A stretch of DNA of 64,000 bases from a virus (IMGVR_UViG_3300036892_000014:1-64000); one strand, 5' to 3'. Positions 3,287-15,542 are shown, counted from the first letter of the stretch. Program-made: numbers and translations. Notes: generated by a model not told the origin, from the letters alone.

Positions 3287-3704
3287 AATCAGTGTATGCC
3301 GCAGACATACCATTCTCATTGAACAGCACACATCTAGCGCTGTGAATCGGTGATGCTAATTCTTTCACCCACTTGTTCATCACAACAGCCATAAACGATT
3401 TGTCATGAGGATTATATCCAATCTTAACCGGGAGGTCTTTACCATTACGGTCTATGCCGCAACAACTACCAACCAGCAGCCCGACAGCGAAAGCGTGAAC
3501 GTTCTTTCTGTTTTCGCGAAGCACGCGCTGCCTACCGGATTCTCGAACTTTAAAGGTTACATCTTTAAGAACGAGACGGTGACGACGTGCAACCACTTTC
3601 CCGTTTTGCATGATTGAATAAAGCAGACGAGTGCTGCGACCGTGTTTTAAATTACGATAAACCCAAATACGCTTTGTTTTATCAAGTTTGGAAGTCGTCT
3701 TCAT
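3285..3704 (-). CDS. conserved phage protein (VYRNL...KNVHAF family)
   Basis: Recognisable phage family motifs; GGAG RBS before ATG 3704. Confidence 0.7.
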   Translation of the reverse strand: MKTTSKLDKTKRIWVYRNLKHGRSTRLLYSIMQNGKVVARRHRLVLKDVTFKVRESGRQRVLRENRKNVHAFAVGLLVGSCCGIDRNGKDLPVKIGYNPHDKSFMAVVMNKWVKELASPIHSARCVLFNENGMSAAYTD

Positions 3705-4096
3705 ACTCCAATTCCTCCAGTAACTAATCTCGTCGGATACGAGCAGCGTGTAGTCGTTCCAGCACATCGATGGCCACATCGTGGTCCATTTTATGGTCAT
3801 CAACTACATGGGTGAGGAAACGTAAGCCGAATCGATTGTGCAGGTATTTGACGCACATTGGCAGTTGGCTATCTCCACGTGTGTTGGGACAGATACGATA
3901 TAGACAGCGGGGGTGCGGGTGAGCCATCGTCGGAGCATTGAGAGCATTATAGCCAACCATCTGACAGTGCAAGCCAATGTGCGATGCGAACAGGAAAGTT
4001 ATTCATAAATCACCTCGCTCAGTAACCACCAACCAATCGTGAGCAGCACGGTCAAGAGGACCAAGCTGACCGAGATTTGCACGATCGCTTGACTAT

Positions 4097-4360
4097 TCAT
4101 GATAGCCCGAGAGACTTCAAGGTAGCGTGGCGTTCGCGGCGAGCCTCATTCTTCCGGATGCGTGCTAGGCCCTTGTGAAACTCAGCCATCGCTTCATTGT
4201 GCGCCTTGCACGCGGCGCTAGATTGATCGAACACCACAAACTTGGAATCAACTGGCACACCAGCTTCGGTGCAGGCTGCGTTCCAGAGTACCTTGATGTT
4301 GGCCTTCCAGAGATTCAGTTGGCTGACTTCTCGCTTGGTGAGCATCGGTGTTGCCTCCAT
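4097..4360 (-). CDS. early protein, paralog family A
   Basis: LWNAAC...SKFVVF...HNE; C-terminus RHATLKSLGL resembles KHAAMTDLGL of 2326-2631. Confidence 0.7.
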   Translation of the reverse strand: MEATPMLTKREVSQLNLWKANIKVLWNAACTEAGVPVDSKFVVFDQSSAACKAHNEAMAEFHKGLARIRKNEARRERHATLKSLGLS

Positions 4361-4366
4361 GTAAAG

Positions 4367-4409
4367 AGTGTACCGCAAGCCTTGGAAACTGTCAATAGTA
4401 CTTTAGTCC
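4367..4409 (-). promoter_or_regulatory. early promoter cassette 7 (TTGACA-17-TACACT)
   Basis: GGAC/GTAC box upstream of -35. Confidence 0.8.
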
Positions 4410-4471
4410 TGTTCTGGCTGTCACCTGAGACTGTAAGCGTTCCTAGTTTCATATGTTCACCTCAATCTGAG

Positions 4472-4500
4472 AGATTATCAGGTTGGCGACAGAATGTCAA
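4472..4500 (-). promoter_or_regulatory. sigma70 promoter TTGACA-17-TAATCT
   Basis: Consensus match with A-rich upstream tract; spacer contains a TGGCGACA repeat. Confidence 0.65.
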
Positions 4501-5710
4501 GTGTTATTTTTCAACTATTTTGGCGACAGGTCGATTCGTCGTTTGTTCGCCCATCTATCTTAAGAGATGTAAGAGTCTTAGATATCCTGAAGTTCTTAAA
4601 GCTCTTCAGATTCATTATAGATATCTAGATATATTAGGGAAAGATGCCCCAAATGCTGTCGCCAAAGGGGCGGGGTCGGGAGAGAGAGCTAATTATAAGT
4701 CATATTTAAGTTATAATTAATTATCTCCTAAATAGCGTAAGTCATTTGTTTTTATAAACATGGAAAACCCCGCGATAAGTATATATTATCTTTTGGTCAA
4801 ATATTGTGTGTGTGTGTGTATGGACGACACCGCTTTGGCGACACCATTTTGTTAAACTCTTTATTATGTGTGGTTTACAAGCCAAAAAGGTGTCGCCGCC
4901 AATGGAATCAATGACTTACAAGATCGTGAAATGGCGACAGGATCGTGGCGACAGCTTCCGGCCTCAAATTGATAAGGGCGACGGTATACAGACATCTTAT
5001 GAGGACACTAGAGGCCGACATAGTCTCAACGATGATTCGCTCTCGTGAGACGATGTCAGACCAATTCTCATTTTGAGACAAGAGCGTTGTTTAGCCTAAG
5101 ACAGGCGATGAGACAGCGCAAGTCATTAATAACACAAGCGTTATACGCACACATCAGAATTGTGAGACGCGGATGGTTCATCTGGCGCACAAAAAGCGAG
5201 AAAATTACAAAATTTTTACGCTTTCGATGCAAATAAAAGCGATTTTACGCTAAAACGTTGAAAACACACAAGTTAGTAACACACAAAAGCCAGATAACAG
5301 GCGGAACACTGACGAAATGCTCGGACGAGGTAGCTTAGCCAACGACTCCGAGAGACCTGTGGCAACGTGAGCATAACTAATCATTAAGCGCATCAGCAGT
5401 AAGCGCAATCAAATCAAGGGTTTGCAACAAAGTGCAATGAATGTGTAATCGGCAATAGGTTGGCATTAGTCGTGCTTTTAGTAAACGTAAGTCATTGAAG
5501 ACGAATGAGTTGCTGCTATGTTATGTGCTATGTTGTAGATAGCCTTCGTCCTATAAGTCCTTTGGAATCATGAGGGTGCCGCCAGCCAGTAATCCGCCAA
5601 GACACCCACCCGCCCCTCCCGCACGTTGACGATGGCGACGGTAGCAGTTTCAGCGTACCCTCTGCTCTCGTAGCATCAGGATACCTAAGTCCTTTAGAAT
5701 CAGTTAGTTA
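4483..5710. repeat. non-coding region with about 8 TGGCGACA-like repeats and about 9 IHF-like TAAGTC...TTA sites
   Basis: Repeats in both orientations at 4483-4985; WATCARNNNNTTR matches near 4906, 5412, 5698. Confidence 0.6.
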
Positions 5711-5940: not shown

Positions 5941-6483
5941 ATGAGCAGTGAGACGATTGCGAACAAAGCGCCAGAGTCATTTGGCCAAAAGATTGAAAGG
6001 GAAGCACTTGGTCTACCTGACCCGCTAACAGACCGTGTTCGACCGAACGAGTCTCAGGGCGACGTGCCCATCCCGAAAGAATTCCGCACCGCTGTTGACC
6101 CCGCGCTGTACCCGAAGGATGGCGTTGCCGGGGATTCGTCCCAGGCCGCCGTCACCTCGAAGACGCTTTACGGCACTGTTACGCTACCATCCTCTACGAA
6201 AGAGGAATCGACATGGGAAGAAGAGGGCGGACACCCCGGCTACGATGTCTCGAAGACGCCCCAAGAAGTTTTGGACAAGATCGTCGAACAGGCCGCCATT
6301 GAGTTAGGCACATCTGCCGCCGCAGCATTTAGCGGAAAGTCAGAACCGCCGCGCATGGTCGCCGTACAGATCGACACGCTGTTGGAAGGTTCGACCGCAG
6401 GCGATCTAGCTAAGTTTAAGAAACAGGTCATCGCCGCATTTAAGCATTTGGGCCTTGACGTGAGGAAGCACTTTGGAGTATAG
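5941..6483 (+). CDS. hypothetical protein
   Basis: 180-aa ORF, first long gene of the rightward arm. Confidence 0.65.
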   Translation: MSSETIANKAPESFGQKIEREALGLPDPLTDRVRPNESQGDVPIPKEFRTAVDPALYPKDGVAGDSSQAAVTSKTLYGTVTLPSSTKEESTWEEEGGHPGYDVSKTPQEVLDKIVEQAAIELGTSAAAAFSGKSEPPRMVAVQIDTLLEGSTAGDLAKFKKQVIAAFKHLGLDVRKHFGV

Positions 6484-6484
6484 T

Positions 6485-6697
6485 ATGGATGCATACCCGC
6501 AGCGTGAACGACCGCCCGTCAGTGAAGTGAAGGATGCAACGTGCCGCGAGAATGCTTGCACGGATGCAGCGAAGAAACAGTGCGGACGCAACGGATTTCC
6601 TTTCATGGACGACCGCATCGACGAACCGAACAAGCCGCCTATGCTGGCCGAAGACACAAAGTACGACCGAGACAAGGCGACGCATAAGAACGGATAA
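6485..6697 (+). CDS. hypothetical protein
   Basis: GGAG RBS, follows previous stop. Confidence 0.5.
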   Translation: MDAYPQRERPPVSEVKDATCRENACTDAAKKQCGRNGFPFMDDRIDEPNKPPMLAEDTKYDRDKATHKNG

Positions 6698-6917
6698 GGA
6701 AAAGAAATGTACGCAATTATCTGTCTCGTTGTTACGTTGGCTGTCGGGGCTCTGTTTATCGCGGCCTTCAGAAAATCTTGGAATTAAGGGAAACGAAATG
6801 ATGAAAGCAGTCCTGCATTATTTGGATAAAGAGATTTTCAGGCTCTCAGCGCAGTTGCGCTATTTGAAGAACCTGCAAAAGTTTCTTTCATAAAGTTCTT
6901 GACAAACAGGAGATATC

Positions 6918-7145
6918 ATGGTAGAATTCGTATTAGCAATCGGGGCTGTCATCGCAACAGCCGTCGCGATCTCGAAGCACTTCTCCGCGGCGCAGCTTAA
7001 GGTTGACCTAGCCTCAGCGAAGGCAGCCGTGGTGAGCGAAGTGAACAAGGTCAAGGCTACAGTCATCGTCGAGTTGGCCAAGGTCGCTCCGAGCGCAAGC
7101 GCGGACGTTCAGGCACTCGTGGTTAAGATCAAAGCAGTGCTTTGA
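6918..7145 (+). CDS. small membrane-anchored Ala/Val-rich protein
   Basis: AGGAG RBS, N-terminal hydrophobic helix. Confidence 0.65.
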   Translation: MVEFVLAIGAVIATAVAISKHFSAAQLKVDLASAKAAVVSEVNKVKATVIVELAKVAPSASADVQALVVKIKAVL

Positions 7146-7188: not shown

Positions 7189-7265
7189 GGTGAGCCAGGC
7201 GAAACAGGTGACGCGCTAGACTGTGAATCTGGTTACAGTGGGTTCGAGACCCACGGCCCACCCCA
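7189..7265 (+). tRNA. tRNA-His(GTG)
   Basis: Cloverleaf, G-1, encoded CCA. Confidence 0.9.
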
Positions 7266-7336
7266 ATTTTAAATCCACGACTACGGTCAGGTGCAAAGTT
7301 TGAAGTTGAAGTTGCCGAAAGAAAAAGTTTAGATAA

Positions 7337-7414
7337 CGCGCCTGTCCAGGCATTGGGGTCGCCCCAGAATTCGGACCATCTGGTCCCGAACGCTCGCGAG
7401 AGGATCGGGGCACA
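7337..7414 (+). ncRNA. putative cloverleaf-like ncRNA
   Basis: Outer stem plus hairpins TGGGG/CCCCA and TTCGG/CCGAA; ATTTT trailer like the tRNAs. Confidence 0.35.
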
Positions 7415-7432
7415 TTTTAGAAAGCAGGGTTT

Positions 7433-7708
7433 ATGGCCGGATACGAGATGGATGTTCCCGAGTATCCGCACAGAATGACGTACCGCGTCGTCGGAGGTTT
7501 CCACTTGCCTTACGACGTGTCAAAGACTCCCGAAGAAAAGAAGTCCAGCCCGCAGCGGCTTGAGCAGTTGATCTTGGCAGGCGAGCAAGCGAGTATAACG
7601 TTTCGCGTTCTTCCCGTGGACATACAGCAACTGTACGTGAAACAGTTCGCGATGTTACTGGCCGAGATCGAGAAGTTGAGATTGAAGTTGCCTAAAGAAA
7701 AAGTTTAG
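7433..7708 (+). CDS. hypothetical protein in tRNA array
   Basis: 91-aa ORF; shares YDVSKTP with 5941-6483. Confidence 0.55.
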   Translation: MAGYEMDVPEYPHRMTYRVVGGFHLPYDVSKTPEEKKSSPQRLEQLILAGEQASITFRVLPVDIQQLYVKQFAMLLAEIEKLRLKLPKEKV

Positions 7709-7782
7709 CCGCTCTAGCTCAGTGGTAGAGCGCCGGTCTGAAAAGCCGGGCGTCTGTGGTTCGATTCCCCAGTGCGGCACCA
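7708..7782 (+). tRNA. tRNA-Phe(GAA)
   Basis: Cloverleaf, CCA. Confidence 0.9.
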
Positions 7783-7788
7783 AGTTTT

Positions 7789-7855
7789 GGCTGAGTATGC
7801 TTCGCCGTGCAAACGGAATGAAGACCAACCAGCGGTCCTGTTACCAGGAGCCGCA
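7789..7855 (+). ncRNA. putative four-way-junction ncRNA
   Basis: GGCT/AGCC closing stem with three hairpins; AAGTTT trailer. Confidence 0.35.
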
Positions 7856-7861
7856 AAGTTT

Positions 7862-7972
7862 ATGAAAACTAGATGGTGTACGATTTGTCACTGGTGGTTA
7901 ACATTGCCGTGGTCTCACAACCACTGCTCTAAGTGTGGCTCGCGTCTAGTACAAGTAGCAAATCGGTTTTAG
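7862..7972 (+). CDS. 36-aa zinc-ribbon peptide
   Basis: CTIC...CSKC. Confidence 0.45.
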   Translation: MKTRWCTICHWWLTLPWSHNHCSKCGSRLVQVANRF

Positions 7973-8055
7973 CCCTGCTGGTGGAATGGCAGACGCGCCG
8001 CACTCAAAACGCGGTTCCTTCGGGAGTCTCAGTTCGAATCTGAGGCGGGGCACCA
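7972..8055 (+). tRNA. tRNA-Leu(CAA)
   Basis: Cloverleaf, long variable arm, CCA. Confidence 0.9.
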
Positions 8056-8060
8056 AAGAT

Positions 8061-8142
8061 TGGAGTGACTTCGAAAACGGTCAATAAGTTTCGAAGCTTG
8101 TTGAACCGCAGCCTCCGCCTAGAAAGCGCGGGCAGCACTCCA
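8061..8142 (+). ncRNA. putative structured ncRNA ending in CCA
   Basis: TGGAGTG/CACTCCA outer stem, CTTCGAAA/TTTCGAAG hairpin, possible loop pseudoknot CGGTCAA/TTGAACCG. Confidence 0.45.
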
Positions 8143-8159
8143 TAGTTTTAGTCCAAGTT

Positions 8160-8366
8160 TGACCGCGTGGAAGGATACCAAGGTTCTCTCGTGAACGATG
8201 AGGCCCAGAAACGCGAAACGTCGGCGGACGAGACTCCGCAGGTAGTCGTCAAAAAGTTCGTAGGCATGATAGCGCGGCTCCGCCGAATAAATCGGTAAAG
8301 ACGGGTACGCCGACCGAGATCACGCTACCGATGTTTGATTGACAAGGGCCGCTTAATCGCGGTCGG
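8160..8366 (+). ncRNA. putative ~205-nt multibranch ncRNA
   Basis: GACCGCG/CGCGGTC outer stem; nested AAACGTCGG/CCGATGTTT, GGTAG/CTACC, GCGGA/TCCGC. Confidence 0.5.
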
Positions 8367-8371
8367 AGATT

Positions 8372-8461
8372 ACCCCGCAGCGATGGTTCGCGGCAGAGTT
8401 CTATAAACTCTTCGGGCCAGATAAGCCTTGCTATGTCGTCCGATTCGACAGTGGGGTACCA
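8372..8461 (+). tRNA. atypical tRNA-Ile(TAT) with long variable arm
   Basis: ACCCCGC/GTGGGGT acceptor, AGAGT-TCTATAA-ACTCT anticodon arm, CCA. Confidence 0.7.
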
Positions 8462-8466
8462 ATTTT

Positions 8467-8552
8467 GCGCTGCTGATGGAATGGCAGACATGCGGGACTT
8501 AAACCCCCGTGGGAGAAATCCCATGAGCGTTCGACTCGCTCGCGGCGCACCA
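8467..8552 (+). tRNA. tRNA-Leu(TAA)
   Basis: Cloverleaf, CCA. Confidence 0.9.
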
Positions 8553-8576
8553 AGTTCTAGAAGTCATGGAGTCTTT

Positions 8577-8816
8577 ATGAGCAAGTCATATGGTGATAAC
8601 CGCGACGACCAAGCATCAGTGCCGTCGGCTGGCGGGGAAATTCGTGCCCGTGGTAAGAGCAGCGCCGAGCAGGATAAGGGTCGCGACGATCAGTCGGCTG
8701 TGGCTGTTGGCGGTGGTGTGAACCGCATGCGTGGTAAGTTGACAGCCGAACAGGACAACGGTCGCGATGACCAGTTTTCAAAGCCGTCAAGCGGCGGAAC
8801 GATCCGTAAGAAGTAA
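8577..8816 (+). CDS. 79-aa hydrophilic protein with three 27-aa RDDQ repeats
   Basis: GGAG RBS; repeats visible in the protein. Confidence 0.7.
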   Translation: MSKSYGDNRDDQASVPSAGGEIRARGKSSAEQDKGRDDQSAVAVGGGVNRMRGKLTAEQDNGRDDQFSKPSSGGTIRKK

Positions 8817-8911
8817 TGCTCACGGGAATAATTATCGGGCTGGCGATTGTGGTGGCTATAGAGTTGATCTCGGACCACCCGCTGTTCGTCCGTCGTAGAA
8901 AATAAGTTTAT

Positions 8912-8987
8912 GCGTTTGTAGCTCAATAGGCAGAGCACTCCCCTCTTAAGGGATAGGTTGCTGGATCATTGCCAGCCGGACGCACCA
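8912..8987 (+). tRNA. tRNA-Lys(CTT)
   Basis: Cloverleaf, CCA. Confidence 0.9.
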
Positions 8988-9004
8988 TTTTGTACGTACA
9001 TTAG

Positions 9005-9048
9005 TTGGGGAGTGCCCTAACACTCCCCGACATCCTTTAGGGAGGATG
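9005..9048 (+). promoter_or_regulatory. kissing-loop RBS-masking leader, copy A
   Basis: GGGGAGTG-CCCTAA-CACTCCCC then CATCCT-TTAGGG-AGGATG; loops complementary. Confidence 0.8.
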
Positions 9049-9050
9049 CC

Positions 9051-9557
9051 ATGATTTGTAAACTTTGTAGCGAGGTCTTTTCGTCGAAAGACAAGCGAAG
9101 ACTATTTTGTTCTAGGTCTTGTTCAGCAACGTACTCGAACAAGTTTGGTGATAGACCAGTTTCACAGAACAGACGACCGTGTCCAGATTGTGGGCAAGAG
9201 ATTAGAAATAAGAATACCAAGACTTGCATAGATTGCCGTGCTGGCAGGCAGCACAGAGAAACAGGATTTCTCAAAAAGAAAGACGTGAATCGTGAGAGGA
9301 TTAGCGCTCACGCTAGAAGGGTTATCAAAGAACACCTCTCGTCTTGTAAAGTTTGCGGGTACGACTTTGCTGTAGAAGCAGCGCACGTCAAACCCGTTAA
9401 AGAGTTTTCAGGTGACGCGACGATAGAAGAGATTAACAGAATAGAAAATCTGTTGCCTCTATGTCCTAATCACCACTTAGAGTTCGACCGAGGTAAGTTG
9501 ACTCTAGAAACAATCTTATCGGTTGCGGATGCGAGCGGCAGCAATGCGGCCTTTTAA
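9051..9557 (+). CDS. HNH homing endonuclease (Zn fingers + HNH)
   Basis: CxxC repeats, EAAHVKP...ENLLPLCPNHH. Confidence 0.9.
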   Translation: MICKLCSEVFSSKDKRRLFCSRSCSATYSNKFGDRPVSQNRRPCPDCGQEIRNKNTKTCIDCRAGRQHRETGFLKKKDVNRERISAHARRVIKEHLSSCKVCGYDFAVEAAHVKPVKEFSGDATIEEINRIENLLPLCPNHHLEFDRGKLTLETILSVADASGSNAAF

Positions 9558-9594
9558 GCCGAGTGTCAGGGTTCGAGCCCCTGGCGACCGACCA
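9520..9594 (+). tRNA. tRNA-Lys(TTT)
   Basis: Cloverleaf, CCA; overlaps HNH 3' end. Confidence 0.85.
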
Positions 9595-9600
9595 ATTTTG

Positions 9601-9692
9601 TGGGAATATAGTTCGGGATAATATCCGAATAGTCCTGGCAACGCATGCGAAACCAGGAAAGGGCGTCGTGAGAATCGGCGAGTTCCCAGCCA
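9601..9692 (+). ncRNA. tRNA-like RNA without a standard anticodon loop
   Basis: TGGGAAT/GTTCCCA acceptor + G + CCA, T-arm CGTCG-TGAGAAT-CGGCG, aberrant D and anticodon arms. Confidence 0.6.
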
Positions 9693-9700
9693 TTTTACGT

Positions 9701-9790
9701 GGAAGTGCGGCGAAGACGGCGGGTCGTATCTGTCTGTAAAACAGATTGCCCTTGTGGCACTAAGAGGTTCAAATCCTCTCGCTTCCACCA
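9701..9790 (+). tRNA. tRNA-Tyr(GTA)
   Basis: Cloverleaf, long variable arm, CCA. Confidence 0.9.
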
Positions 9791-9798
9791 TTTTCTAT

Positions 9799-9873
9799 AG
9801 TTCACTGGCGCAACAGCAGCGCAGTCTCTTGATAGGGGAACGGTTCGTGGTGCAAATCCACGGTGGACTACCA
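9799..9873 (+). tRNA. tRNA-Ile(GAT)
   Basis: Cloverleaf, CCA. Confidence 0.8.
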
Positions 9874-9877
9874 ACTT

Positions 9878-9980
9878 AGTGTTGAGTTCGACGTGTGCAA
9901 GCGTCGGATGTAGTACAGCACAATCAGTTCGTTCTCGGACGTAAACCGAATGGTGGATCAATAATTCCTGATGACACTCC
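9878..9980 (+). ncRNA. putative pseudoknotted ncRNA or leader upstream of HNH
   Basis: AGTGTTG/TGACACT outer stem, TTCGACG/CGTCGGA hairpin, loop TGTGC pairs with GCACA. Confidence 0.4.
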
Positions 9981-9997
9981 TGCCCAGGGAGAATCAC

Positions 9998-10489
9998 ATG
10001 ATTATTGTTTCCGATAGTTGGGACGGACAAATAAGAAAGCTGTCCTCTCATAGTTGTTTGCAATGCAGTGAAGAATTTTTCGCGCCGCTTAAAGCGCGAG
10101 CTAAGTATTGTAGTAGAGACTGCATGGGTTTTGCTACGCGGACTCGAATCAAGATTTCGTGTTCTAGGTGTCGTAAAGAGTTTGAACGACAACAGAACAA
10201 AGTTAAAGAGTTAAACTATTGTAGTAGGGAGTGCAAAGAGTTAGACCAGCAGATTGGCGGTCCTCTAGCGCTACCACACTACAAAGACGGCAGACACGAT
10301 TACAGAAATCGAGCGTTTCGCTTACAAGGAAAGAAGTGTAAGCAATGTAGCTTCGATGAAGACGAGCGAATGCTCGATGTTCATCACATAGATAGTAATC
10401 GAGATAACGGACGACCTGAGAACTTAGTTGTTCTTTGCGTTTGGTGTCACGCCGCCACCACAAGAAAAGTTTCTGGGGCTATCGCCTAA
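9998..10489 (+). CDS. HNH homing endonuclease
   Basis: CxxC/YCSRxC repeats, LDVHHIDSNRDN...ENLVVLCVWCH. Confidence 0.9.
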   Translation: MIIVSDSWDGQIRKLSSHSCLQCSEEFFAPLKARAKYCSRDCMGFATRTRIKISCSRCRKEFERQQNKVKELNYCSRECKELDQQIGGPLALPHYKDGRHDYRNRAFRLQGKKCKQCSFDEDERMLDVHHIDSNRDNGRPENLVVLCVWCHAATTRKVSGAIA

Positions 10490-10551
10490 TTGGGATGGCA
10501 CTTCCCTTGCAAGGAAGAACAATGTCGGATCGTCCCCGACTAGCTCCACCA
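10475..10551 (+). tRNA. tRNA-Ala(TGC)
   Basis: Cloverleaf, G3:U70, CCA; overlaps HNH stop. Confidence 0.9.
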
Positions 10552-10560
10552 AGTTTCAAT

Positions 10561-10635
10561 TCGCGGCTGGCAGATCGGCTCATGCATCGGTCCTACACAC
10601 CGACCAGCGAGGTTCAACTCCTCGGCGGCGAACCA
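10561..10635 (+). tRNA. tRNA-Val(TAC)
   Basis: Cloverleaf, C33, CCA. Confidence 0.8.
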
Positions 10636-10639
10636 TTTT

Positions 10640-10714
10640 GGCTCCTTGGTCCAACGAACAAGACTCAGCGCTACGAACGCTGCAATTTCGGTTTGAATCC
10701 GAAGGGGGCTTCCA
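10640..10714 (+). tRNA. tRNA-Arg(ACG)
   Basis: Cloverleaf, CCA. Confidence 0.85.
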
Positions 10715-10719
10715 ATCTT

Positions 10720-10795
10720 TGGGGATTCGTCTAAACGATAAGACATCTGGCCGTTAACCAGACCGATGAAGGTTTGAATCCTTTGTCCCCAGCCA
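10720..10795 (+). tRNA. tRNA-Asn(GTT)
   Basis: Cloverleaf, C33, CCA. Confidence 0.85.
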
Positions 10796-10803
10796 TTTTA
10801 CGA

Positions 10804-10879
10804 GCACGCATCATATAGCGGTCCAATATTCCGAGCTTGTACCTCGGTCACTTCCGTTCGAATCGGAATGTGTGCTCCA
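10804..10879 (+). tRNA. tRNA-Thr(TGT)
   Basis: Cloverleaf, CCA. Confidence 0.85.
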
Positions 10880-10884
10880 GTTTT

Positions 10885-10958
10885 GCTTTGCTCGTCTAGT
10901 GGTAAGACGACGGTTTCGTAAACCGCAAACGACTGTTCGATTCAGTCGCGAAGCTCCA
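10885..10958 (+). tRNA. tRNA-Thr(CGT)
   Basis: Cloverleaf, CCA. Confidence 0.9.
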
Positions 10959-10964
10959 GTTTAT

Positions 10965-11038
10965 GCTTTGTTCGTACAAAGGAAGTACACGTCTTTGGTA
11001 AAGACGAAACGATGGGTCAGTACCATCACGAAGCTCCA
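10965..11038 (+). tRNA. tRNA-Thr(GGT)
   Basis: Cloverleaf, CCA. Confidence 0.85.
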
Positions 11039-11043
11039 GTTTA

Positions 11044-11110
11044 CGCCCCGAGTCACGCAACACGTAGCCTACAAAACAGGTAGGAGCTAGTGGCCTTTTG
11101 AAAGGGGCGA
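11044..11110 (+). ncRNA. putative structured ncRNA
   Basis: CGCCCC/GGGGCG outer stem, GTCAC/GTGGC, CCTAC/GTAGG. Confidence 0.4.
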
Positions 11111-11119
11111 AAAATTTAC

Positions 11120-11198
11120 GGTCTCGTGGCCCAGCCTGGCCCACGGCGCTCCCCTGTCACGGGAGATTTCACGAGTTCAAATCTCGTCGAGACCGCCA
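11120..11198 (+). tRNA. tRNA-Asp(GTC)
   Basis: Cloverleaf, CCA. Confidence 0.9.
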
Positions 11199-11204
11199 AT
11201 TTAT

Positions 11205-11278
11205 GGCCCTGTCTTCTAATGGCAGGATTCTTGCTTCTCAGGCAGGCGGCAGCGGGTCAGTACCGCTCAGGGCTACCA
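11205..11278 (+). tRNA. tRNA-Glu(CTC)
   Basis: Cloverleaf, CCA. Confidence 0.85.
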
Positions 11279-11283
11279 ATTTT

Positions 11284-11358
11284 CGCGCAGTACGTTATGG
11301 GTTAGACAGCGTGCCTTTCAAGCACGCAGACAGAGTTCGAGTCTCTGCTACGCGACCA
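11284..11358 (+). tRNA. tRNA-Glu(TTC)
   Basis: Cloverleaf, CCA. Confidence 0.85.
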
Positions 11359-11448
11359 ATTATCGATGTGTGCGACAACTTTAGCGAAGTAGTTCTCGGA
11401 CACATTGCACGATGCGGTGCAAGTAGCAATTCCGCGTCGGAGTTTAAT

Positions 11449-11533
11449 GCCCTGCTGATGGAATTGGCAGACATATCCGTCTTAGAAACGGATGCCTTCG
11501 GGCGTACAGGTTCGACTCCTGTGTGGGGTACCA
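11449..11533 (+). tRNA. tRNA-Leu(TAG)
   Basis: Cloverleaf, long variable arm, CCA. Confidence 0.9.
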
Positions 11534-11541
11534 ATTTCAAT

Positions 11542-11629
11542 TGTGGGTTCGACTAGTGGCCGATGTCGCCTGTCTCATAAGCAGGTCAGCGAAAGCGCAC
11601 CGTTGGTTCAAATCCAACACCCGCAACCA
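11542..11629 (+). tRNA. tRNA-Met or Ile2 (CAT) with long variable arm
   Basis: Cloverleaf, CCA; Met versus lysidine-Ile cannot be resolved by eye. Confidence 0.8.
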
Positions 11630-11644
11630 ATTTGATGCATCATA

Positions 11645-11689
11645 GGCCGGGGTGCCCTTAACACCCCGACCAACTCTTTAAGGGAGAGT
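11645..11689 (+). promoter_or_regulatory. kissing-loop RBS-masking leader, copy B
   Basis: CGGGGTG-CCCTTAA-CACCCCG then ACTCT-TTAAGGG-AGAGT. Confidence 0.8.
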
Positions 11690-11692
11690 GCT

Positions 11693-12187
11693 ATGTTTAA
11701 CAAGGCAGAAAACCATAAGCGTTACATGCGGGAAGTTTGGTATCCGGCTAACAAGCGAAAACACCAGACGATGGTTCACCGACGTAAGGTAGCCATACTA
11801 GAATTTGTTCGAGCCGCTAAAGCAATCGGCTGTTCGAGGTGTCCAGAGAAAGAGATATGCTGTCTGGACTTTCATCACGCTAAAGGTAAGAAGAGCGCCA
11901 GCCTATCAAGGGTTCATACGTTGGGCTGGTCGTGGGCTAGGATTAAGCGAGAGATCGCAAAGTGCATTATATTGTGTTCTAACTGTCACAGGAAAGAACA
12001 TGCTAGAGGCCGTGGGCTCGTTTCCCACCCCTGCTACCAATTTATGAATCATAAACGCCGTCGCCCAAAGAATCGCCGTGCTGGATGTCTCATGTGCAAA
12101 GCGCATAAGATGAACGGTGCAAAAGGTGAAATGCTCGCGACCAAGGTCAAGGGCATCAAGGGTAAGATACGGCTTGAAGAAGTTTAA
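11693..12187 (+). CDS. HNH endonuclease fused in frame, through a tRNA remnant, to a small basic ORF (12044-12187)
   Basis: CSRC...LDFHH...EIAKCIILCSNCHRKEH, then reads through a tRNA 3' half. Confidence 0.8.
   Translation: MFNKAENHKRYMREVWYPANKRKHQTMVHRRKVAILEFVRAAKAIGCSRCPEKEICCLDFHHAKGKKSASLSRVHTLGWSWARIKREIAKCIILCSNCHRKEHARGRGLVSHPCYQFMNHKRRRPKNRRAGCLMCKAHKMNGAKGEMLATKVKGIKGKIRLEEV
12003..12039 (+). pseudogene. 3' half of a tRNA (T-arm, acceptor strand, CCA)
   Basis: GTGGG-CTCGTTT-CCCAC CCCTGCT A CCA ATTT; 5' half absent. Confidence 0.7.
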
Positions 12188-12261
12188 GCGATGTTGGTAT
12201 AGTGGTAGAACGATTCCTTGCCAAGGAATAGGCACCGTTTCGATTACGGTACGTCGCTCCA
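12188..12261 (+). tRNA. tRNA-Gly(GCC)
   Basis: Cloverleaf, CCA. Confidence 0.85.
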
Positions 12262-12475
12262 TAGCCGCGAGTGGTGAAAGCCACGGACGGCTCCAAGTTT
12301 CGTTAACCCCGCAATTATGGCGGGACAACCAAATCGTAGGTAGGTTGAAAACCCTACCCCAATTTTACCATATGCCTTGCGGCATGATCGGCATACATAG
12401 TAGAAGCCGCAGTCTTCGCTGCCCGTCAGTTGTTCAAGACTTTAAACATGGGCGACGGGCGAATTTAGGTGATCT

Positions 12476-12721
12476 ATGTTCACAGCCGTAGTGATGACAC
12501 TCGGACTTGTTGTAGACTTGGTCGCTCTGTATTTCTTAGTCGGCATTTGGCGCGATGACAGATTGATGAGAATCGCCGCAGAAGACACATTGAAGGTGCA
12601 GCAAGAATATCTCGGCCTCAGACGAAAGTGGTATGAGAGTCGCACAAAGAAGAAGACTGATGCTCAAGAACCGAAAGCCGCAACTGGAATTCCTGATGGC
12701 GGTAGTTCGAACCCTGTGTAA
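12476..12721 (+). CDS. small membrane protein
   Basis: AGGTG RBS, N-terminal TM helix. Confidence 0.6.
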   Translation: MFTAVVMTLGLVVDLVALYFLVGIWRDDRLMRIAAEDTLKVQQEYLGLRRKWYESRTKKKTDAQEPKAATGIPDGGSSNPV

Positions 12722-12785
12722 CGTGGCAGGCGTAATCATCAGCATCATTTACGTTCTTTGGCAAATGCATTTGTTACCTTTTTAA

Positions 12786-12859
12786 GCGGGCTTGACCGAA
12801 CGGCCAGGTACCTGCCTTCCAAGCAGAGGAAGCGATTTCGACTATCGCAGTCCGCTCCA
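12786..12859 (+). tRNA. tRNA-Gly(TCC)
   Basis: Cloverleaf, CCA. Confidence 0.85.
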
Positions 12860-12862
12860 GTA

Positions 12863-12943
12863 TTCGGGTAGAGGGGTTCGAATCCCACAGGCGTGAACGG
12901 GTAAGGCCGCACGTTGCTATAGTGTAATGGCAGCACACCCGAA
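12863..12943 (+). ncRNA. circularly permuted tRNA-like RNA (YrlA / Y RNA-like)
   Basis: T-loop TTCGAAT precedes D-arm AGTGTAATGGCAGCAC; ends pair TTCGGGT/ACCCGAA. Confidence 0.65.
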
Positions 12944-12954
12944 ATTAGTTCCGC

Positions 12955-13029
12955 GAGTCGCAAGTGTTATGGCTGCATCTCCGTCTCCAAAACGGTAGGG
13001 TGATAGTTCGAATCTATCGCGTCTCGCCA
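12955..13029 (+). tRNA. tRNA-Trp(CCA)
   Basis: Cloverleaf, CCA. Confidence 0.85.
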
Positions 13030-13036
13030 ATTTTAT

Positions 13037-13111
13037 GGGTCTCTCGTTCAATGGAGAGGACGCCACACTTCTAAGGTGGCTATGTCGGTTCGATTCCGAC
13101 GGGGCCTTCCA
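13037..13111 (+). tRNA. tRNA-Arg(TCT)
   Basis: Cloverleaf, CCA. Confidence 0.85.
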
Positions 13112-13117
13112 GTTTCT

Positions 13118-13192
13118 GAATGTATAGCTCAATGGAAAGAGCTAGGGTTTCCTAAACCCTCGATCCAGGTTCGACTCCTGGTACGTTCTCCA
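13118..13192 (+). tRNA. tRNA-Arg(CCT)
   Basis: Cloverleaf, CCA. Confidence 0.9.
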
Positions 13193-13206
13193 GTTCAAGG
13201 GGCAGT

Positions 13207-13605
13207 ATGAAACTCAGTAGGTTCCCATATTGGCAACTGCTAGCGATACCTGCTCTAGCGTGGTGCCTAGGACTCGGATTAAACCAGGCGGTATTGATTG
13301 CCAATCACGGGAAGTTCCCCGTGATGGTGAATGAAGTCCAGTATGAGATACATTGCACCGCGGATGAAGACTCAGATGACGCGCCGTCATCATCGTGTGT
13401 AAAAGGCGGTCAGTTCTTTGATAGAGAACATAGTGTTATGGGGCCGAACTCGCGTCTGAAACCATTAGCCGACATCCTTCCGATAGTCGGCGGCGTATAC
13501 AGTATCGGCGACACTCTACTCCTCGTGGGTGGAGAGTCATTTGCAATTTTGAAATTTATGTGGCTTGCTCTGGTAATCAGAAAGGCCTCACAGAACTTAG
13601 GGTAG
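13207..13605 (+). CDS. DUF5317-like membrane protein
   Basis: LNQAVLIANHGKFPV...HSVM...SRLKPLADIL...YSIGD motifs. Confidence 0.7.
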   Translation: MKLSRFPYWQLLAIPALAWCLGLGLNQAVLIANHGKFPVMVNEVQYEIHCTADEDSDDAPSSSCVKGGQFFDREHSVMGPNSRLKPLADILPIVGGVYSIGDTLLLVGGESFAILKFMWLALVIRKASQNLG

Positions 13606-13912
13606 GCTGGACGACCGCAGGAAACTGAGGAAGTTCGGGACTCTTCTAGACAGAAGACTGTGGAAGATGCAGGACGCGTAAGCGTACGGGTAAGGCCAGA
13701 TGCGGTGCAGATGCTATGGGAAACCAAATGCGGACATCGCCATTCAAGTCTGGGCACTCCCTCTTCGGAGCAATCTCAAATAGGACCTGAGCGCGTCTAG
13801 CGCGATGACGGTCGGGTTGAGAGCAAAGACGGATGGTCGTCAACTTATAACGTGACAATTCGAAAGATTTGTCAACTTATAACGTGACAGAATCCCGGCT
13901 ATAGGCCGACCC
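13600..13912 (+). ncRNA. rnpB: RNase P RNA (bacterial A-type-like, reduced)
   Basis: GAGGAAGTTCGGGA and ACAGAATCCCGGCTA form P4; P1, P2, P3, P6 (CTAGA/TCTAG), P8, P9 and P15-17 can be paired. Confidence 0.9.
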
Positions 13913-13923
13913 AAAGATATTAC

Positions 13924-14009
13924 GGATCAGTGGCGAAATGGTAGACGCACGAGTTTGCTAAACTCGCAACTGAAAGGTTGTGCCTGTTCAAGTCGGGCCT
14001 GATCCGCCA
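13924..14009 (+). tRNA. tRNA-Ser(GCT)
   Basis: Cloverleaf, long variable arm, CCA. Confidence 0.9.
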
Positions 14010-14017
14010 AATTTCAA

Positions 14018-14102
14018 GGAAGATTCCGCTCATGGTGGGCAATCCGGTTTGAACCCGGAGGCTGCTGAAAGGCAGGGGTTTCGATTACTCACTCTTCCTC
14101 CA
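14018..14102 (+). tRNA. tRNA-Ser(TGA)
   Basis: Cloverleaf, long variable arm, CCA. Confidence 0.8.
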
Positions 14103-14108
14103 TTTTAA

Positions 14109-14182
14109 CCACGAGTCGGCAAACGGCAAGCTGAATGTCTGCAAAACATTTACCGCTGGTTCGACTCCAGCCTCGTGGTCCA
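14109..14182 (+). tRNA. tRNA-Cys(GCA)
   Basis: Cloverleaf, U73, CCA. Confidence 0.9.
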
Positions 14183-14191
14183 AGTTTCTAC

Positions 14192-14266
14192 TGGGCGATG
14201 GTGTAACGGTAACATCACGGACTTTGAATCCGTTGGATGAACGTTCGAATCGTTCTTGCCCAGCCA
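14192..14266 (+). tRNA. tRNA-Gln(TTG)
   Basis: Cloverleaf, CCA. Confidence 0.9.
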
Positions 14267-14274
14267 ATTTCAAT

Positions 14275-14349
14275 TGCTCGGTCATCTAATTAGTAGGATG
14301 CGATCCTCTGAAGATTGTCATGCTGGTGCGAGTCCAGCCCAAGCAACCA
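14275..14349 (+). tRNA. tRNA-Gln(CTG)
   Basis: Cloverleaf, CCA. Confidence 0.85.
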
Positions 14350-14350
14350 A

Positions 14351-14426
14351 CACCCGATAGCTCAAAGCGATTAGAGCACCTGGCTTGACCAGAGAGATAC
14401 CGCCTAGCGAACGGTTTGGGTGACCA
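14351..14426 (+). ncRNA. tRNA-like RNA with 5-nt anticodon loop
   Basis: CACCCGA/TTGGGTG acceptor + ACCA, D-arm, CTGG-CTTGA-CCAG, non-canonical T-loop. Confidence 0.6.
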
Positions 14427-14433
14427 ATTTAAT

Positions 14434-14522
14434 CGGGTTATAGCTCCGTAATCTGGCAGCGGTCTGGTTTTGGAAACCAGTGACTAACGTCCTTCGAGGT
14501 CCGAATCCTCGTAGCCCGACCA
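14434..14522 (+). tRNA. tRNA-Pro(TGG) with extended variable arm
   Basis: Cloverleaf, CCA. Confidence 0.85.
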
Positions 14523-14542
14523 TTTTGTATGTACGTACATTT

Positions 14543-14590
14543 GACGGGACGAGCCTGTAACTCGTCCCGTCTACTCTTTACAGGAGAGTA
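14543..14590 (+). promoter_or_regulatory. kissing-loop RBS-masking leader, copy C
   Basis: GACGGGACGAG-CCTGTAA-CTCGTCCCGTC then TACTCT-TTACAGG-AGAGTA. Confidence 0.85.
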
Positions 14591-14592
14591 TC

Positions 14593-14973
14593 ATGATTAG
14601 TTCAGAAGCGCAGAAAGCGTGGAAGAGAAAAGACTATCTAGATAAGAAAGCATATAAGAAAGCATATTATTTAGCGCGAGACACCGAGCGATACTACAGG
14701 TTTCGAGAGATTTTGATTGAGGCGAAGAGAAAGCCTTGCATAGATTGCGGACACGAGTTTCCGACCTGTGCAATGGATTTGCATCATAGAAACCAGAGTG
14801 AGAAGATTCGAAACGTCTCTACCTTAAAAGACTTCTCTTCCGAGAAGAAATTGAGAGAAGAGATTGCCAAGTGTGATGTGATATGTGCTTGCTGTCATCG
14901 AATCCGCTCAGATAAAGACAAAGTTTACTTCGGGAATTCTGATAGTGGTAATCTACGCCCTTCGGATGGGTGA
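14593..14973 (+). CDS. HNH endonuclease
   Basis: CIDCG...MDLHH...EIAKCDVICACCHRIR; stop codon lies inside tRNA-Pro(CGG). Confidence 0.85.
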   Translation: MISSEAQKAWKRKDYLDKKAYKKAYYLARDTERYYRFREILIEAKRKPCIDCGHEFPTCAMDLHHRNQSEKIRNVSTLKDFSSEKKLREEIAKCDVICACCHRIRSDKDKVYFGNSDSGNLRPSDG

Positions 14974-15004
14974 GACAGAGTTTCGATTACTCTATTCCCG
15001 ACCA
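14931..15004 (+). tRNA. tRNA-Pro(CGG)
   Basis: Cloverleaf, CCA. Confidence 0.85.
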
Positions 15005-15013
15005 TATTAAAGT

Positions 15014-15050
15014 AAAGCCGCCTTCGCTTTAACAAGCAGGCGGCTTTTGT
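15014..15050 (+). terminator. rho-independent terminator ending the tRNA array
   Basis: AAAGCCGCCT...AGGCGGCTTTT hairpin with T-tract. Confidence 0.75.
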
Positions 15051-15068
15051 ATTTCTGGAGGTGTCGTC

Positions 15069-15542
15069 ATGTGGATGGGACAAGGGCAACTAAACTTCGA
15101 TGACGGCACTGTGCAGGTTACCGCAGCGGGTGGACCCGCAACCATTATTCAGACTGTGGCTATCGACCCCACAGCGCCAACAACCGGACAGGTTCTAACC
15201 GCGATCAGCGCCAGCGCAGCAAGTTGGCAAGCTGCTGGTGGTTCTTCATTGAACTACAAGACCATACGTTCTGCCCCGACGAGCTTTACTCAGGCAGGAA
15301 TTACCGGTCCTATCGTGATGTCTTTCTCTACACCTTTTGCGGACAACAACTACACCATACAGGTCACTGTATTAGGTGATGAAGTTGCTCCAGGCACACC
15401 CACAATCACTCAGTTCCCTTCAGTAGGAATTAGTTACATCGCGCTTCAGACAACCCCTGGCGCTGGTGTGAATGTGTGGATTGCAAATAACGATTCCATT
15501 GCGCACACGGGCATCATACACGTCACCGCAATTCACGACTAA
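15069..15542 (+). CDS. putative virion protein
   Basis: GGAGG RBS, Thr/Gly/Ala-rich beta-type sequence. Confidence 0.7.
   Translation: MWMGQGQLNFDDGTVQVTAAGGPATIIQTVAIDPTAPTTGQVLTAISASAASWQAAGGSSLNYKTIRSAPTSFTQAGITGPIVMSFSTPFADNNYTIQVTVLGDEVAPGTPTITQFPSVGISYIALQTTPGAGVNVWIANNDSIAHTGIIHVTAIHD

Follow-up and report, generated by a model that had tools for sequence, protein, structure and literature searches.

Why nuclease genes lodged in a phage transfer RNA (tRNA) array should read up to, or into, the tRNA gene that follows them, and what this would mean for their expression, is the question raised by the locus described here. The array lies in the first 64 kb (the window) of an 83.9-kb virus record in IMG/VR (IMGVR_UViG_3300036892_000014), which is estimated to be 79% complete. 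It occupies positions 7190-15004, comprises 28 tRNAs called by ARAGORN and three extra tRNAs from Rfam, and holds in its spacers four open reading frames (ORFs), HNH1 to HNH4, all of which match HNH nucleases in Pfam and PHROGs; these and the other annotated elements given below lie on the + strand. A sequence-only reading of this DNA had held that all four ORFs run into the downstream tRNA, and that RNase P would thereby cut each message ahead of its stop codon. We favor, with a probability of about 0.68, the explanation that the four genes are stop-less cassettes in a compact array, whose stop codons would be severed upon tRNA processing, and that the overlap is mainly a by-product of insertion and compaction at sites where nothing but the tRNAs and their processing signals is protected.

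The anatomy of the overlaps could be read directly, and the sequence and ARAGORN agree on each of them. HNH1 (9051-9557; 168 amino acids; Pfam PF13391 at 1.2e-11, with the HNH_2 domain at residues 99-152, and PHROG HNH families) lies to the right of tRNA-Lys(CUU) (8912-8987; ARAGORN, Rfam 53.9 bits) and has its final 12 codons and stop within tRNA-Lys(UUU) (9520-9594; ARAGORN, Rfam 25.9 bits), an overlap of 38 nucleotides (nt); the stop, TAA at 9555-9557, is made of tRNA positions 36-38, i.e. the third anticodon base and two loop bases. HNH2 (9998-10489, with an alternative ATG at 9971; 163 amino acids; Pfam PF01844 and phrog_1271 at 2.1e-20) enters tRNA-Ala(UGC) (10475-10551; ARAGORN, Rfam 48.8 bits) by 15 nt, with the final four codons and a TAA (10487-10489) at tRNA positions 13-15, in the D-arm. 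HNH4 (14593-14973; 126 amino acids; phrog_3106 at 4.9e-23 and also phrog_2255, supported by the family alignment) follows tRNA-Pro(UGG) (14434-14522; ARAGORN and Rfam) and enters tRNA-Pro(CGG) (14931-15004; ARAGORN, with no Rfam match at E<0.1) by 43 nt; its conserved block extends to residue 103, its final 14 codons and stop lie within the tRNA, and the stop, TGA at 14971-14973, corresponds to positions 41-43, in the anticodon stem. These three placements are those given by the sequence-only reading. HNH3 (11693-12187; 164 amino acids; phrog_2255 and phrog_3106 matches ending at residues 105-117) departs from the general claim of that reading that all four enter the next tRNA, because its TAA ends at 12187, directly 5' of the first base of tRNA-Gly(GCC) (12188-12261; ARAGORN, Rfam 56.7 bits), which is not entered (overlap 0). 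Taken together, the start ATGs lie 63-124 nt 3' of the upstream CCA, and the stops lie 0 to 43 nt beyond the first base (+1) of the downstream tRNA.

HNH3 does cross a tRNA 3' half, as had been read from the sequence. Its HNH core extends to about residue 105 and is followed by an orphan T-arm, acceptor 3' strand, CCA and ATTT (12010-12043), by a basic tail of 47 codons and by the TAA of the spacer. Neither ARAGORN nor Rfam called a full tRNA at 12010-12043, and the fragment, which is 74% identical to the 3' end of tRNA-Met at 11600-11633, is a diverged copy of it. The tail (12044-12187) begins at an in-frame ATG right after the orphan CCA, is very basic and contains one CxxC; it gave no Pfam or PHROG match and no tblastn match in any fetched locus. 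In the alignment of the family to which HNH3 and HNH4 belong, the conserved block ends at a CxxCH motif and the tails beyond it are variable and unconserved, and both proteins keep the family-invariant residues Cys-49, Cys-52, His-65, Cys-94, Cys-98, Cys-101 and His-102.

The overlaps would be of little interest if the overlapped tRNAs were pseudogenes or false calls, in which case there would be no true gene overlap. Their scores give some cause for such doubt, since tRNA-Lys(UUU), at 25.9 bits, falls below the Rfam gathering score of 29, and tRNA-Pro(CGG) is missed by Rfam altogether. Three relatives, L054, L055 and L056, were found via a 509-residue protein encoded beside the array (identity 74%, 56% and 68%, respectively). 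The order of tRNAs in the array is syntenic with that in L055 and L056, and the overlapped tRNAs have syntenic orthologues in two to three relatives, in which their unusual D-arms are kept. Compensatory changes are present in 12 of the 19 stem pairs of tRNA-Lys(UUU) (compared with L055 and L056) and, as double changes, in 15 of the 21 stem pairs of tRNA-Pro(CGG) (four phages), and this covariation of the cloverleaf is independent of whether an HNH gene is present or absent. tRNA-Ala, for its part, scores 48.8 bits. The pseudogene explanation thus has a negligible chance of being correct. Judged by these substitutions, the overlapped tRNAs are functional, evolve under tRNA constraint and are older than the nucleases. 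A metagenome scan with the same neighbor protein added one further short array, L077, which is without the tRNA-Pro site, and a megablast search of 8900-15100 against cultured phages gave a single 85-nt tRNA match and no close cultured phage.

Alignment with the relatives lacking the HNH genes allowed the junctions to be mapped. L055 has none of the four genes, and its spacers at sites 1-4 measure 70, 76, 6 and 8 nt; L056 lacks HNH2 and HNH4, with a 7-nt spacer at site 2, has a different HNH gene at site 3 and carries an HNH1 remnant at site 1. A conserved spacer, CCA-(A/G)TTTnnnn, precedes the tRNAs in HNH-plus and HNH-minus alleles alike (window, L055 and L056). Because this spacer is retained right before the overlapped tRNAs, where the HNH ORFs read through it, the left edge of each cassette can be placed about 4 nt past the upstream CCA and its right edge about 9-10 nt short of the following tRNA. 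The earlier suggestion that the overlaps mark the right boundary of a cassette inserted 5' of tRNAs is thus borne out, with the edge placed by the empty sites at about 9-10 nt ahead of the tRNA +1. The cassettes contain no stop codon, and for this reason each ORF uses the first in-frame stop of the resident DNA: that of HNH3 is supplied by the TTTAA of the spacer, and the other three ORFs, in frames without a spacer stop, end at triplets inside the tRNA.

Site 1 further provides a typical decay series of a homing endonuclease gene. The full gene in the window corresponds in L056 to a homologous leader (3933-3998) followed by a 60-codon in-frame HNH1 remnant that has lost the catalytic core but retains ...LEFDRGK.SLE.IL... 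at its end and stops, like HNH1, at the TAA of the tRNA-Lys anticodon loop, and in L055 to a 70-nt vestige only. Such a series, together with presence and absence at syntenic sites, is the usual hallmark of a free-standing homing endonuclease gene, and the four ORFs are thus best regarded as probable free-standing HNH homing-endonuclease cassettes drawn from three families. Other origins for the junctions were considered and rejected. The cassette did not bring its own tRNA 5' part, as HNH-lacking relatives have orthologues of the 5' halves of both tRNA-Lys(UUU) and tRNA-Pro(CGG). The Lys/Lys and Pro/Pro flanks are not recent duplications made by insertion, as the members of each pair are dissimilar in sequence; an insertion-made duplication of isoacceptors is also rejected on the ground that the same pairs are adjacent in the HNH-less L055. 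A pattern search of IMG/VR returned no relatives of HNH1 and HNH2.

To judge the overlaps against chance, we let a stop-less reading frame enter every one of the 28 tRNAs, beginning 12 nt upstream and using all three frames. In 50% of cases the first stop lay inside the tRNA, in 43% it lay farther downstream and in 7% it was already reached in the spacer; the median overlap was 43.5 nt. The observed overlaps of 38, 15, 0 and 43 nt fit this distribution and are ordinary in length. Further, other ORFs in the arrays are equally flush. In the window, a 91-residue ORF ends 1 nt inside tRNA-Phe; for non-nuclease ORFs in the relatives, the gap to the next tRNA is -1 to 7 nt. HNH genes of another family, phrog_23251, in the relatives either overlap the tRNA, by 44 and 10 nt in L056, or stop 7 nt short of it. 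Among ORFs of at least 90 amino acids in the fetched IMG/VR arrays, 15 of 69 overlap the next tRNA and 11 more stop no more than 10 nt from it; an HNH-motif regular expression proved too crude for this survey, and the split into HNH and non-HNH ORFs was not used. We conclude that what is non-random is the absence of an own stop and the flush position before the next tRNA, which is general compaction, with no 3' untranslated region (UTR) in array ORFs, and that there is no special relation between the HNH stops and tRNA structure.

Homologues of HNH3 and HNH4 in other tRNA arrays either overlap the tRNA or stop before it. The sequence-only reading had taken stops before the tRNA in homologous genes as a refutation, and this is in part what is seen: three of 13 array homologues overlap the tRNA (by 38, 15 and 10 nt), and the remaining ten stop earlier, mostly 4-23 nt before it. 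L047, an unrelated 188-kb IMG/VR phage, has three paralogous genes of this family (854-1273, 3513-3938 and 5977-6603), all of which enter the next tRNA by exactly 15 nt and use a TAG or TAA that occupies tRNA positions 13-15; among these paralogues is a tandem double-HNH fusion. We also note that nucleases of another fold have colonized the same niche: in L054, a PD-(D/E)XK endonuclease (4337-4720; PF11645, 2.8e-19) has its stop 1 nt before tRNA-Tyr.

We next consider transcription. In a consensus scan of the + strand, the only strong promoter-like match ahead of the array was a sigma-70-like sequence at 6899-6927 (TTGACA, 17 nt, TAGAAT, with TG; 11 of 12 matches), and the scan also gave an intrinsic-terminator-like hairpin with a T-run just past the last tRNA at 15016-15054 (scan match 15024-15043, extended by eye). 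The scan returned no comparable promoter- or terminator-like site at the HNH genes, and the whole array looks like one operon. In sequencing-run data, for which Logan contigs were used, a contig from an RNA library (10266-10544) spans the HNH2/tRNA-Ala junction with no mismatches. Several RNA-library contigs end near tRNA 5' ends (7713, 7973), with partial RNA coverage of the array, from which we draw no conclusion.

From these observations, we propose that HNH cassettes invaded the very short spacers of a tRNA array transcribed as a single operon. A cassette arriving without a stop codon or 3' UTR would leave translation to end at the first in-frame stop of the resident DNA. If the array is one operon and the downstream tRNA is functional, maturation of the tRNA 5' end must sever the ORF from its stop; maturation itself is assumed, because conservation of the tRNAs implies it. 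RNase P cleavage at the tRNA +1 would thus strip the stop from HNH1, HNH2 and HNH4 and would leave that of HNH3 at the extreme 3' end of its message. On any one transcript, a mature tRNA and a released full-length HNH protein would be mutually exclusive, so that normally released full-length nuclease would come only from unprocessed precursor, and removal of the stop together with occlusion of the ribosome-binding site would keep the nuclease level low. The claim that RNase P cuts the message before the stop holds, accordingly qualified, for the geometry of three of the genes, which requires the cut if the tRNAs are processed, and fails for HNH3, which would keep its stop; co-transcription, the cleavage, the non-stop fate of the message and the effect on nuclease dose are what we infer. 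RNase E prefers to cleave at R-N-cut-W-U-U, and the AG/UUU core of the array spacer resembles this preference; such a cut would part all of the HNH ORFs, HNH3 included, from their stops.

Occlusion of the ribosome-binding site is suggested by the leaders, as the predicted folds place the Shine-Dalgarno (SD) sequence within a hairpin in all four. Leader 1 (8988-9050; -25.9 kcal/mol, z -3.0) opens with the palindrome TGTACGTACA at 8991-9000 and has a hairpin with the loop CCCUAA followed by an SD hairpin with UUAGGG; leader 3 (11630-11692; z -1.75) has TGATGCATCA at 11633-11642, the loop CCCUUAA and an SD hairpin with UUAAGGG; and leader 4 (14523-14592; -29.7 kcal/mol, z -4.7) has TGTACGTACA at 14530-14539, the loop CCUGUAA and an SD hairpin with UUACAGG. 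The two hairpins of these leaders are thus predicted to have complementary loops, and the pair differs from copy to copy and covaries. The same two-hairpin architecture is common to the leaders of two different HNH families and persists in L056 before the gutted HNH1 remnant. Leader 2 (9874-9997) is built differently: its SD sequence is paired by a local hairpin, and the fold z-score is not significant. In HNH1, HNH3 and HNH4, the ribosome-binding site is accordingly predicted, from modeled folds, to be occluded by leader structure. The perfect 10-nt palindrome stands 3-8 nt after the upstream CCA in these three leaders, L056 has TGTAGCTACA at about 3938-3947, and the element may serve as a protein operator or in processing.

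The phage also encodes an RNase P RNA within the array (13599-13917), as the sequence-only reading had it at 13600. It is of the bacterial class A, reduced, and matches Rfam RF00010 over the full model span at 93.6 bits (E 5e-28), just below the gathering score of 100. The RNA is syntenic in all three relatives (L054 5715-5974, L055 6746-7041 and L056 8281-8577), and the array copies score 78-94 bits. A literature search returned no paper on phage-encoded RNase P RNA.

These findings bear on whether the absence of a stop has been selected. Under adaptive coupling, RNase P would make a non-stop HNH message, the product would be tagged by transfer-messenger RNA and degraded, and the dose of nuclease would be set by tRNA processing, perhaps tuned by the phage RNase P RNA. 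Such a control would add to the leaders that occlude the ribosome-binding site, and the idea already exists in the literature for segB (PMC2330249). Similar overlaps are seen repeatedly, across several HNH families and in phages unrelated to one another (-38 in L046, three of -15 in L047, -10 in L032, -44 and -10 in L056, and those of hegC and hegD in T5); the tRNA-embedded stop persists in the decayed L056 remnant, and the RNase P RNA is kept in the array of all three relatives. However, most array homologues of the HNH3/4 family (10 of 13) have their own stop before the tRNA, non-nuclease ORFs are equally flush, and the overlap lengths match the null. The persistence of the stop in tRNA-Lys(UUU) is dictated by the anticodon loop sequence, and its conservation is therefore uninformative about selection on the ORF. 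We consider this explanation unlikely, and quite improbable in its broader form, namely that stop-less cassettes are adaptive by design and common throughout phage tRNA arrays, with nuclease dose inverse to RNase P activity and settable here by the phage RNase P RNA, and with processed messages feeding ribosome rescue. The claim that the overlap was selected as a control finds no support in the unconserved tails, the null lengths and the equally flush non-HNH ORFs and PD-(D/E)XK nuclease. The data can be explained without coupling, which is also not a new idea, and selection of the overlap, rather than its tolerance, is unproven. A different explanation takes the ORFs to be dying or dead homing endonuclease genes, in which 3' ends and stops were deleted and read-through is decay without expression or function. 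The four ORFs are indeed much shorter than the PHROG profiles at both ends (residues 5-110 of HNH4 correspond to 118-225 of the 252 profile positions), HNH3 is fused to an orphan tRNA fragment, and later stages of decay are seen at site 1 in L056 and L055. Set against this are the family-invariant Cys, His and Glu/Lys positions, all of which are kept in HNH3 and HNH4, the complete Pfam HNH domains of HNH1 and HNH2, the intact start codons and SD sequences with covarying leaders, and ORFs of 126-168 codons without internal stops; we regard decay as very doubtful.

The explanation we prefer, stop-less cassettes whose overlap is a by-product of compaction, has several points weighing against it in turn. 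The promoter and terminator calls are consensus matches, and the consensus may not be that of the host; the RNA-library contig across the HNH2/tRNA-Ala junction may come from contaminating DNA; and the transcription units, RNase P cleavage sites and protein products are predictions from sequence. None of the four ORFs runs past its tRNA, compared with 43% of the null frames (p ~0.06, n = 4), and this absence could reflect selection on tail length. Further, the 59-codon read-through of HNH3 had a chance of only about 6% of staying open by luck, so the tail may be real coding sequence, and it may be a captured small gene.

Neither the layout nor the proposed control through tRNA processing is without precedent, as both are documented for T4 and T5. 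For T4 segB, two brakes have been proposed, a hairpin that occludes the SD sequence and AUG and a cut between the last sense codon and the stop in tRNA maturation, and a similar lowering of expression via processing of the primary transcript was suggested for T5 F-TflI/II/III (Brok-Volchanskaya et al. 2008, PMC2330249). The two-layer control that the sequence-only reading put forward had thus been anticipated in 2008. The association of homing endonucleases with tRNA clusters has also been quantified recently for SegB (PMC13096335). Like the window genes, segB is a free-standing homing endonuclease gene that fills the spacer between same-strand tRNAs; segB is made as a part of the tRNA precursor. 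A distance of 41 nt separates it from tRNA-Ile, and it stops 5 nt short of tRNA-Arg, i.e. outside the tRNA, whereas the window stops lie up to 43 nt inside. SegB is a GIY-YIG enzyme and the window ORFs, which gave no GIY-YIG match in Pfam or PHROGs, are HNH, so that the arrangement is segB-like but the family is not that of SegB. T4 encodes no RNase P RNA, whereas the window array has one, and SegB has been shown to cleave a tRNA T-loop DNA motif.

In T5, too, HNH genes inside a tRNA array run into the downstream tRNA. In our ARAGORN check of the T5 reference record, hegD overlaps tRNA-Gln by 23 nt, hegC tRNA-Ser by 14 nt and T5.069 tRNA-Asn by 24 nt, and the distance from the end of other array ORFs to the next tRNA is 0-15 nt. 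The T5 genes belong to other sequence families than those of the window (a tblastn search of T5 with HNH2 gave only a weak match, E 0.006), several annotated promoters lie inside the T5 tRNA region in contrast to the one upstream promoter-like site here, and the tRNA under hegD is annotated as a pseudogene, whereas the overlapped tRNAs of the window are conserved and covary. HNH proteins of phrog_3106 and phrog_2255 in other arrays belong to the HNH3/4 family (up to 51% identity), are often found between tRNAs of the same strand and stop from -38 to +23 nt from the next tRNA. Most of these end on a stop of their own shortly ahead of the tRNA, by a few bases, and many, in contrast to HNH3 and HNH4, carry an N-terminal CxxC...CxxC module; one member, in Salmonella phage NINP13076, runs 10 nt into tRNA-Lys. 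In animal mitochondria, excision of tRNAs sets the 3' ends of mRNAs, and some ORFs without a complete encoded stop are completed by polyadenylation. There, tRNA punctuation is the normal route of expression; in the window, a cut would remove the stop, with no known restoration. The locus is distinguished by a deeper overlap with a stop in the anticodon loop, by three HNH families that share one solution, and by an RNase P RNA in the same putative operon.

Although no new kind of system is revealed, the locus provides an unusually clean natural test set for the 2008 hypothesis that phages hold the selfish nucleases of tRNA clusters in check by making their messages depend on tRNA processing: four cassettes from three families, with stops 0-43 nt into functional tRNAs, with empty and decayed alleles in relatives and with an RNase P RNA. 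It also carries a warning for annotation. ORF-tRNA overlaps are real and common, about one-fifth of the surveyed array ORFs of at least 90 amino acids overlapping the next tRNA, and gene callers that forbid overlap will therefore truncate or miss such genes.

Several further features of the array were noted. Metagenomes with near-identical DNA come from peat, permafrost and freshwater. In DNA runs X2-X4, joints or loose ends lie 3' of tRNA-Met (11631-11638) and could be variant alleles or tRNA-Met genes of other organisms. A 132-residue membrane-protein ORF (13207-13605; DUF5317, PF17248) ends 7 nt inside the RNase P RNA, and at the corresponding position in L054 (4976-5392) a similar C-terminal sequence was recognized by eye. 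A 33-nt direct repeat (7300-7332 and 7676-7708; 91% identical) consists of the 3' end of the 91-residue ORF and the spacer, copied to just 3' of tRNA-His, and looks as though a segment of the array had once been duplicated or deleted. Finally, the interval from tRNA-Lys(UUU) to tRNA-Tyr contains a conserved RNA of some 95 nt (9600-9697; L056, about 4196-4282); it drew no call from ARAGORN or Rfam, and it has an acceptor-like closing stem, a 3' CCA/ACA (GTGGGAA...TTCCCAGCCA) and tRNA-type spacers on both sides.

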